Shown one piece after another: positions 10,890 through 11,873 of a stretch of 64,000 nucleotides of DNA. Source of the DNA: Escherichia phage EI-SP-GF. The notes beneath the pieces were generated by a model. That model worked only from the letters and a program-made list of their open reading frames with translations, ran no database searches and had not been told where the DNA came from. The DNA lies in the sequence record OR992645.1; one strand, given 5' to 3'. Position numbers and translations under genes: made by a program. The first letter of the stretch is position 1. Each line of letters opens with the position of its first letter.

Positions 10890-11873
10890 TTAACCTTTCA
10901 TGAAGTGGTTATTAAGCAGCTGTCTGTGCTGAACCCACCCACAAAAGTTGGCAGACCAGAATTTACCATCACGGTCTTGATGGGTTACACCTTCCTGCCA
11001 AACACAGCTGTCCTGTGTGATTTCACATGAAGACAGGTAGTAGTTTAAACGTTCCATTGCGTTATCGTGATCCATAGGTGTTGCCTGGTGCTCGTAAGGG
11101 CTTGCATGAATACGATCCCCGCCAATCAATTTTTTAGCCACACTGTCTGCCTTTTCAAACGTGCTGTCAATATTTCGATAAGATACTTGTGCACAGCAAC
11201 TAGCACTAATAGATAGAGCTTCTTTAGTATCGAGAATGCATAGCTTCCCTTCTGTGTCACGTACAGCGTAGTTAAACTCACCGTCCAAATAAACGTGCTC
11301 TACATATGGGGTGTGCCATTGACCCGGTTTAAGGGTTTCAGGAGTGCTATTCATAAGAGCATCCCACATACAATTAGCCAGCATCTGAATCGTAGGATCA
11401 GCATCGTGCCAGCAACGCAGGTGGAAAAAATTATTCCACTCGGTGCTTGTTACAACTGTTTTCATGCGCTGAAACGGCTCCACTAAGCGATTACATACCT
11501 GCTTATGGTAACCCGCAAGGGCGAACTTCTCTGCATGCCACGCGGCGTTTTTTGCAGCTTCTTTCCAAAACTCTTCAGGAGTTAACTCCATGTCGGTATA
11601 CTCTACACGGATCTTTTGATCGTGTTCCCCACCATCTTCCATCCCTCGCTTATTTACACCGAAGCGAACTGGCATTGCCGGATTCTCCACGATCTGCTGC
11701 AGCATCTTACCGACAGGAACTGCACGAGAAGACATGGCGTTTCGGCTGAACACTCGATGTGTCATAAGCTCTGAGTGAATAATTCGAGGATACTCTAGCT
11801 CAAAAGTGGTGATACGCTTACCTTTCTCGGAAATGCTGTCGGCAATAATCTTTGCAGTGCACAGTTTTAGCAT
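10890..11873 (-). CDS. putative flavin-dependent thymidylate synthase (ThyX-like)
   Basis: Motif ELMTHRVFSRNAMSSRA resembles ThyX RHR-x7-S signature; longer than typical ThyX. Confidence 0.45.
   Translation of the reverse strand: MLKLCTAKIIADSISEKGKRITTFELEYPRIIHSELMTHRVFSRNAMSSRAVPVGKMLQQIVENPAMPVRFGVNKRGMEDGGEHDQKIRVEYTDMELTPEEFWKEAAKNAAWHAEKFALAGYHKQVCNRLVEPFQRMKTVVTSTEWNNFFHLRCWHDADPTIQMLANCMWDALMNSTPETLKPGQWHTPYVEHVYLDGEFNYAVRDTEGKLCILDTKEALSISASCCAQVSYRNIDSTFEKADSVAKKLIGGDRIHASPYEHQATPMDHDNAMERLNYYLSSCEITQDSCVWQEGVTHQDRDGKFWSANFCGWVQHRQLLNNHFMKG

Follow-up and report, generated by a model that had tools for sequence, protein, structure and literature searches.

The gene at positions 10890-11873 on the minus strand of Escherichia phage EI-SP-GF (sequence record OR992645.1; the window referred to below is the whole analysed stretch of 64,000 nucleotides (nt)) probably specifies a thymidylate synthase that depends on flavin, belongs to the ThyX superfamily and has its modules in a permuted order, a reading to which we assign a probability of about 80% from homology, the predicted fold and the genomic context. 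All ThyX enzymes characterised so far carry at the N-terminus a module which in this protein, and in the phage family to which it belongs, aligns behind the core. The ThyX call itself is already public, as databases label the gene thymidylate synthase or flavin adenine dinucleotide (FAD)-dependent thymidylate synthase. The gene call therefore changes nothing, and the added value lies in the architecture, by which a very large phage family would represent a rearranged ThyX.

The enzyme would convert deoxyuridine monophosphate (dUMP) and methylene-tetrahydrofolate to deoxythymidine monophosphate (dTMP) via reduced FAD, and would supply dTMP for phage DNA replication independently of the ThyA/dihydrofolate reductase (DHFR) cycle of the host. 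Its chain would begin with the core, carrying a THRxxSxxxxSxR motif and the ligands R129 and R153, and would continue with a module comprising α1-α2 and H-x-S-P-x-E-H, plus an insertion and a C-terminal extension.

Identification of the gene and homology to ThyX

The interval 10890-11873 is exactly one complete open reading frame (ORF) of 327 codons plus a stop codon, while the plus-strand frame across the same positions is riddled with stop codons. The original prediction, a reading of the sequence made before this analysis, had named the same interval and a protein of 327 amino acids (aa), leaving the strand unstated. The 15 kb surrounding the gene are 96-97% identical over the full length to many Vequintavirus (rV5-like) Escherichia coli phages, among them nomo, EmilHeitz and rV5_ev146. 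A protein of Escherichia phage ECP2303 annotated as thymidylate synthase shows 100% aa identity to the 327-aa protein, and proteins in other Vequintavirus records are 97-98% identical and labelled FAD-dependent thymidylate synthase. Homologues with 39-55% identity are present in phi92/phAPEC8-like, ICP1, PaP1-like and G7C-like phages, the members from PaP1-like phages (Pakpunavirus) being 48-49% identical. A match to the 327-aa protein was contained in 1035 phage records. Among 8000 candidates scored, 7526 clusters (90% identity) matched at E <1e-5, and the family comprises 5044 representatives of 50%-identity clusters. It is a large and apparently phage-specific ThyX subfamily.

The predicted coding sequence at 10890..11873 (minus strand) was assigned to ThyX by Pfam, PHROG and Foldseek together with the identity to the ECP2303 protein. 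The protein matched the Pfam family Thy1 (PF02511) with 37.2 bits (gathering threshold 24.8; E 3.5e-9), although the match covered only positions 60-190 of the 191 positions of the profile, on aa 23-178. PHROG 85, thymidylate synthase, was matched with E 1e-113. A monomer model without ligands was produced with AlphaFold2 from an alignment of 54 sequences; it had a predicted local distance difference test (pLDDT) value of 86.9 and a predicted template modelling (TM) score of 0.86. When this model was compared with the PDB by Foldseek, the top 50 matches were all ThyX structures (probability 1.0, E about 1e-5), including those from Thermotoga maritima (1O26, 7NDW), PBCV-1 (4FZB) and Mycobacterium tuberculosis (3GWC). 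According to the model, the protein has the ThyX fold. The idea of a ThyX-like enzyme, as put forward in the original prediction, is therefore borne out by the Pfam match above the curated threshold, obtained with the profile hidden Markov model search that it had proposed, by Foldseek matches to ThyX only and by the agreement with public annotation.

Permuted order of the ThyX modules

The colinear ThyX architecture, with α1-α2 and H-x-(S/T)-P-x-E-H preceding the signature motif, was not found in the 327-aa protein; the corresponding module was located at aa 219-262, after the core. Within it, aa 223-262 (SASCCAQVSYR...HASPYEH) resemble a stretch at the N-terminus of T. maritima ThyX (AARVSF...HETPFEH). 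The order was investigated with constructs made in silico from four family members, in which aa 186-262 were moved ahead of aa 21-185. Re-permuting raised the Pfam Thy1 scores from 37.2, 37.1, 30.1 and 30.6 bits to 49.5, 48.7, 43.0 and 42.1 bits, respectively, a gain of about 12 bits in all four cases, and extended the coverage of the profile from positions 59-190 to about 13-190; the re-permuted protein of the window gave its 49.5 bits over positions 15-191. No gain was seen in the controls, in which either a wrong segment (aa 263-327) or the segment in reverse had been placed in front (33.5-37.9 bits).

Profile-profile alignment with hhalign showed the same order. The query profile was built from 135 diverse representatives of the family, each standing for one 50%-identity cluster, and the target profile from T. 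maritima ThyX (Tm), the sequence of which matches the PDB construct at 100% identity, with 119 relatives. In the native order two separate matches were obtained, which are swapped relative to canonical ThyX: aa 219-276 aligned with Tm 18-79 (probability 92.9%, E 3.8e-7) and aa 15-196 with Tm 55-211 (probability 86.0%, E 5.1e-6). The re-permuted family alignment yielded one colinear match over Tm 18-204, with a probability of 98.3%, E 1.5e-14 and a score of 98.5, compared with a score of 45.8 for the control with the reversed block.

The apparent permutation might also be an alignment artefact, in which case the protein would be a colinear ThyX whose N-terminus has diverged and whose unrelated C-terminal domain carries a chance string similar to HxSPxEH. 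The region of aa 219-262 does have the lowest confidence of the model, and the C-terminal 142 aa alone give no Pfam Thy1 match. The independent profile-profile match with E 3.8e-7, however, spans 56 columns and extends beyond the motif, and both the doubling of the hhalign score and the Pfam gain of about 12 bits required the right segment in its proper orientation. Furthermore, the aa 1-20 that precede the core strand at aa 21 are too short to hold the α1-α2 module, and three relatives carry an intein at H256, within the module. We consider such an artefact very improbable. As to the form of the rearrangement, a circular permutation and a relocation of α1-α2 alone, with the strand at aa 6-15 kept in place, were equal within noise in hhalign (98.5 and 99.5 in local mode, 88.8 and 85.1 in global mode, respectively).

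Parts of the protein

The protein has 327 aa compared with 220 aa for T. maritima ThyX. The original prediction of about 100 additional aa was correct in length, but the extra domain that it had considered was not seen; the additional residues are spread over several parts, namely a strand (aa 1-14), an insertion (aa 64-98), a linker (aa 197-218) and a C-terminal extension (aa 263-327). The possibility that the C-terminal 142 aa form a separate known domain was rejected, as Pfam returned nothing significant for this part.

All parts are encoded on the minus strand. The N-terminal β-strand (aa 1-14; 11832..11873) comprises residues 6-15 of the model according to DSSP and pairs with the first strand of the core in a hairpin. 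It is followed by the putative ThyX core (aa 15-196; 11286..11831), which was delimited by hhalign, Pfam and conservation as the counterpart of Tm 55-211 and holds R129, N148 and R153. The signature motif THRVFSRNAMSSRA lies in this core at aa 38-51 (11721..11762), as seen from the sequence, hhalign and conservation. A family-specific insertion with G77-M78 occupies aa 64-98 (11580..11684) and was opposite a gap in the hhalign alignments. The core is connected by a β-rich linker (aa 197-218; 11220..11285), with strands at residues 192-196, 199-205 and 211-214 according to DSSP, to the relocated module; the linker corresponds to alignment columns rich in insertions and deletions and differs in length among family members. 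The relocated module (aa 219-262; 11088..11219) corresponds to the canonical residues 18-59, with α1-α2 and HxSPxEH, as judged by hhalign and the Pfam constructs. The C-terminal extension of 65 aa (aa 263-327; 10893..11087) is conserved, was modelled with pLDDT values of 87-95 and has no counterpart in canonical ThyX.

Predicted active site and function

The original prediction had described a motif of the type RHR...S. This motif is present as THRVFSRNAMSSRA, except that the first arginine is replaced by threonine. Compared with the ThyX signature RHRxxSxxxxSxR, the motif THRVFSRNAMSSR has retained H, R, S, S and R. Little or no variation was found among the 135 representatives at H39, S48, R50, R129, N148, R153, H256 and H262. 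The three residues R50, R129 and R153, which were mapped by hhalign to the substrate-binding arginines R90, R147 and R174 of Tm, are found in 134-135 of the 135 sequences. By the same mapping, H79, R80, S83, N85, S88 and R90 of Tm are kept in the motif as H39, R40, S43, N45, S48 and R50, and R147, N169 and R174 are kept as R129, N148 and R153. Residues S30, H53, T55, E58 and H59 of Tm correspond to S231, H256, S258, E261 and H262 in the relocated module. The roles of these residues in contacting dUMP and FAD are presumably those of their counterparts in the T. maritima ThyX structures.

Several residues are conserved in the family only. G77 and M78 of the insertion were found in 135 of the 135 sequences, and further family-specific invariant residues are K124-Q125, H187-x-P189, R233 (116 of 135) and R317 (135 of 135). 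In the C-terminal extension N309 and Q315 are, like R317, invariant or nearly so. From their conservation, N309, Q315 and R317 are candidates to replace the lost arginine ligands, and R317, R233 and K124 might stand in for them. Most dUMP and flavin ligands are kept. The pattern points to a functional site that has been remodelled and not to decay.

Relatives of 524-683 aa were found to hold inteins, either with Intein_splicing and HNH or with LAGLIDADG. These intein-bearing relatives, none of them in the window, are P0126, P0134, P0145, P0219, P0158, P0208, P0223, P0235 and P0244. The inteins start with Cys, end with HN or GN and are followed by Cys or Ser at position +1. In the numbering of the window protein, they are inserted after H33, R40, S48, R153/C154 and H256, at five or more sites; all sites adjoin predicted catalytic motifs and one lies within the relocated HxSPxEH. 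In essential replication enzymes, inteins are typically found in those catalytic motifs that are conserved best. As these long members showed two matched stretches, a tandem duplication of ThyX was also considered, a duplicated ThyX being a possible intermediate toward circular permutation. This was ruled out, as the long members are single copies interrupted by inteins.

The loss of the first arginine of the RHR motif and of the counterpart of R165, together with the low scores against the curated thyX models, could indicate a catalytically dead ThyX derivative that serves in regulation or binds nucleotides, for instance as a scaffold of a complex for deoxynucleoside triphosphate synthesis. 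However, purifying selection on the other catalytic motifs is very strong across more than 5000 cluster representatives (50% identity), the inteins target exactly these motifs, and the substitutions are fixed throughout the family and not scattered, which argues for remodelling. A dead derivative is therefore extremely improbable.

A number of observations weigh against a permuted thymidylate synthase. The NCBIfam equivalog model for thyX, TIGR02170, was missed with 39.7 bits at a cut-off of 87.9, probably because the architecture is permuted and the set of ligands partly rebuilt. When the PDB was searched by sequence, neither the protein nor the family profile gave a significant match (best E 0.84). 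The target-normalised TM scores obtained with Foldseek were only 0.43-0.57 over 155-220 aligned columns, a modest value, as is to be expected when the order of the chain is partly changed. Within the relocated module, aa 221-260 are the least confident part of the model (pLDDT 59-71). Threonine occupies the position of Tm R78 (T38) in 129 of the 135 representatives, and according to hhalign and conservation R165, Q75, E86, Y91 and H178 of Tm are likewise replaced throughout the family, by T144, E35, A46, A51 and D157, respectively. Given these replaced canonical ligands, the handling of substrate or cofactor could differ. Finally, the open-access literature yielded no study of the enzymology, genetics or structure of the subfamily.

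The same substitutions leave room for a flavin-dependent enzyme that modifies C5 of pyrimidines with an altered substrate or product, such as methylation of deoxycytidine monophosphate (dCMP) or uridine monophosphate (UMP) or hydroxymethylation of dUMP, and that serves base modification or another pathway. PolB, the UMP C5-methylase of polyoxin synthesis, is a ThyX-like enzyme with another substrate. In the phage family, five residues that contact dUMP or FAD in T. maritima ThyX are replaced (R78 by T, R165 by T, Q75 by E, E86 by A and Y91 by A), the new invariant residues G77-M78, K124-Q125, H187-x-P189, R233, N309, Q315 and R317 have appeared, and the score for TIGR02170 lies below the cut-off of this equivalog model. 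On the other hand, the residues R50, R129, R153 and S48, which are the ligands of uracil and phosphate, are invariant, the family adjoins ribonucleotide reductase (RNR) genes in many unrelated phage groups, and the annotation of the EmilHeitz genome contains no second thymidylate synthase. Moreover, the Vequintavirinae have been described as 'exceptionally susceptible' to restriction-modification systems (PMC8594841); such sensitivity of rV5-like phages would be unexpected for hypermodified DNA, so a role in base hypermodification is disfavoured. We regard a C5-modifying enzyme of this kind as unlikely.

For the permuted thymidylate synthase, the analysis showed homology and fold, the order of the modules, the conservation of ligands and the genomic context, and from there we infer flavin binding, the oligomeric state and the reaction from dUMP to dTMP. 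Canonical ThyX binds FAD and is a homotetramer whose active sites lie where subunits meet. A correlative observation comes from phage PaP1, in which thymidine increased during infection while the thymidylate synthase gene ORF110, which may belong to the family, was highly expressed (PMC5377924). In the Rheinheimera 'barba' phages, thymidylate synthases of 223 aa and 303 aa without detectable mutual similarity were reported from different species with a similar genome arrangement (PMC6715854). This pair may represent a natural exchange of a canonical and a long, possibly permuted ThyX, provided that the 303-aa protein is a member of the family and that both genes occupy one position.

More tentatively, and at somewhat less than even odds, the proteins of the rV5, phi92, ICP1, PaP1 and G7C type could form an undescribed class of naturally permuted ThyX with a rebuilt flavin and dUMP pocket. 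In this pocket R78 and R165 would be lost and ligands would be contributed by the relocated HxSPxEH and the C-terminal extension, including R317. No description of a permutation in the subfamily was found in the open-access literature. If the proposal is true, the class may deviate from the cellular enzymes in its cofactor, its reductant or its response to inhibitors, or even in its product.

The family includes phages studied for therapy (PaP1-like phages, ICP1 and rV5-like phages), and it is missed by the strict thyX equivalog model, which is relevant to correct automated annotation. If the proteins are active, they constitute a natural experiment in the tolerance of the ThyX active site to permutation and to the loss of two arginine ligands, and would be relevant to the mechanism of ThyX and to inhibitor design.

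Expression signals and genomic context

The start codon of the ThyX-like gene (ATG, 11873-11871) shares bases with the TAA of an upstream ORF of 66 aa (TAATG), which suggests translational coupling of the two. A strong Shine-Dalgarno sequence, AAGGAGA, was read from the sequence at 11882..11888 (minus strand), 8 nt 5′ of the ATG. The stop codon is separated from the next gene by a weak terminator-like hairpin (10872-10888, minus strand) and, just after it, a σ70-like promoter (TTGACT-17-TATAAT; 10832-10860, minus strand), which was recognised solely by its match to the consensus at 11 of 12 positions. Judged from the sequence, the hairpin and the promoter suggest a boundary of transcription units within the nucleotide-metabolism cluster.

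Upstream of the gene, on the same strand, a protein of 197 aa (12075..12668) resembles 5′(3′)-deoxyribonucleotidases of the NT5C type, which are haloacid dehalogenase (HAD) proteins (Pfam NT5C 26.5 bits, threshold 24.8; PHROG 420). Further upstream lies a deoxynucleoside monophosphate (dNMP) kinase of 200 aa (12674..13276, minus strand), which matched PHROG 139 with E 2.6e-43, gave no Pfam match and is labelled P-loop NTPase in EmilHeitz. Downstream, two small genes without an assigned role are followed by the class I RNR α and β subunits, glutaredoxin and an anaerobic RNR. The α subunit (7777-10092) and the β subunit (within 6648-7826) were assigned from the annotation of the 97%-identical region of EmilHeitz and glutaredoxin (6366-6644) from Pfam Glutaredoxin, all on the minus strand. 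The nucleotide-metabolism operon of the original prediction, comprising RNR, dNMP kinase and nucleotidase, was real in that these genes are present on the same strand; the RNR genes may, however, form a separate transcription unit, because the hairpin and the promoter follow the stop codon of the ThyX-like gene. The annotated genes of EmilHeitz include neither a further thymidylate synthase nor a DHFR, a dCMP deaminase or a dUTPase. Enzymes of the ThyX type do not consume the reducing equivalents of tetrahydrofolate, and a phage without an annotated DHFR therefore fits with such an enzyme.

Additional features were observed in the window. The ORF at 5506-6369 (minus strand) resembles the N-terminal part of anaerobic (class III) RNR, which in EmilHeitz is annotated as a join of two pieces that flank an ORF for a homing endonuclease. 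At 13916-14764 (minus strand) a protein of 282 aa with an IGNPPFG motif matched PHROG 5172 and, less strongly, PHROGs of DNA methyltransferases; it had no Pfam match at E <0.01, and its homologue in EmilHeitz is labelled putative N6-adenine methyltransferase. A group I intron (Rfam RF00028, 84 bits, E 6e-20) was found at 31731-32009 (plus strand) and appears to split the gene of the terminase large subunit (31315-33181). Exon 1 would fall in the ORF 31315-31743, which holds the Walker A motif GGAAGSGKS, and exon 2 in the ORF 32093-33181; the terminase gene of EmilHeitz is annotated as one unbroken coding sequence. Six tRNA genes detected with Rfam are clustered at 29273-30208 (plus strand), matching a tRNA block near the end of the EmilHeitz record.

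Comparison with known systems

The proteins annotated as thymidylate synthase in rV5-like, phi92-like, ICP1, PaP1-like and G7C-like phages (PHROG 85) belong to the same family as the 327-aa protein and show no differences from it in this respect; their labels are based on homology only. With the annotated homologues of Vequintavirus the gene of the window also has its genomic neighbourhood in common.

Canonical ThyX proteins, such as TM0449 (1O26), A674R (4FZB) and Rv2754c (3GWC), share with the phage protein the fold, the Pfam family and the presumed reaction and role, as well as the motifs xHRxxSxxxxSxR and HxSPxEH and the arginine ligands R90, R147 and R174. In contrast to them, the phage protein has swapped modules, threonine in place of R78 and R165, an insertion at aa 64-98 and a C-terminal extension of 65 aa; it comprises 327 aa instead of about 220 aa and scored below the cut-off of TIGR02170. 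Long ThyX-like proteins of 300-370 aa also occur in crAss-like, Gordonia and Mycobacterium phages. They have the ThyX fold and are longer than cellular ThyX (BFVD probability 1.0), but share only 10-19% identity with the AlphaFold2 model, at TM scores of about 0.3.

ThyA of the E. coli host catalyses the same net reaction from dUMP to dTMP but is unrelated in fold and mechanism. It yields dihydrofolate and needs DHFR, whereas enzymes of the ThyX type do not. If active, the phage enzyme would bring a DHFR-independent route to dTMP into a host that uses ThyA.

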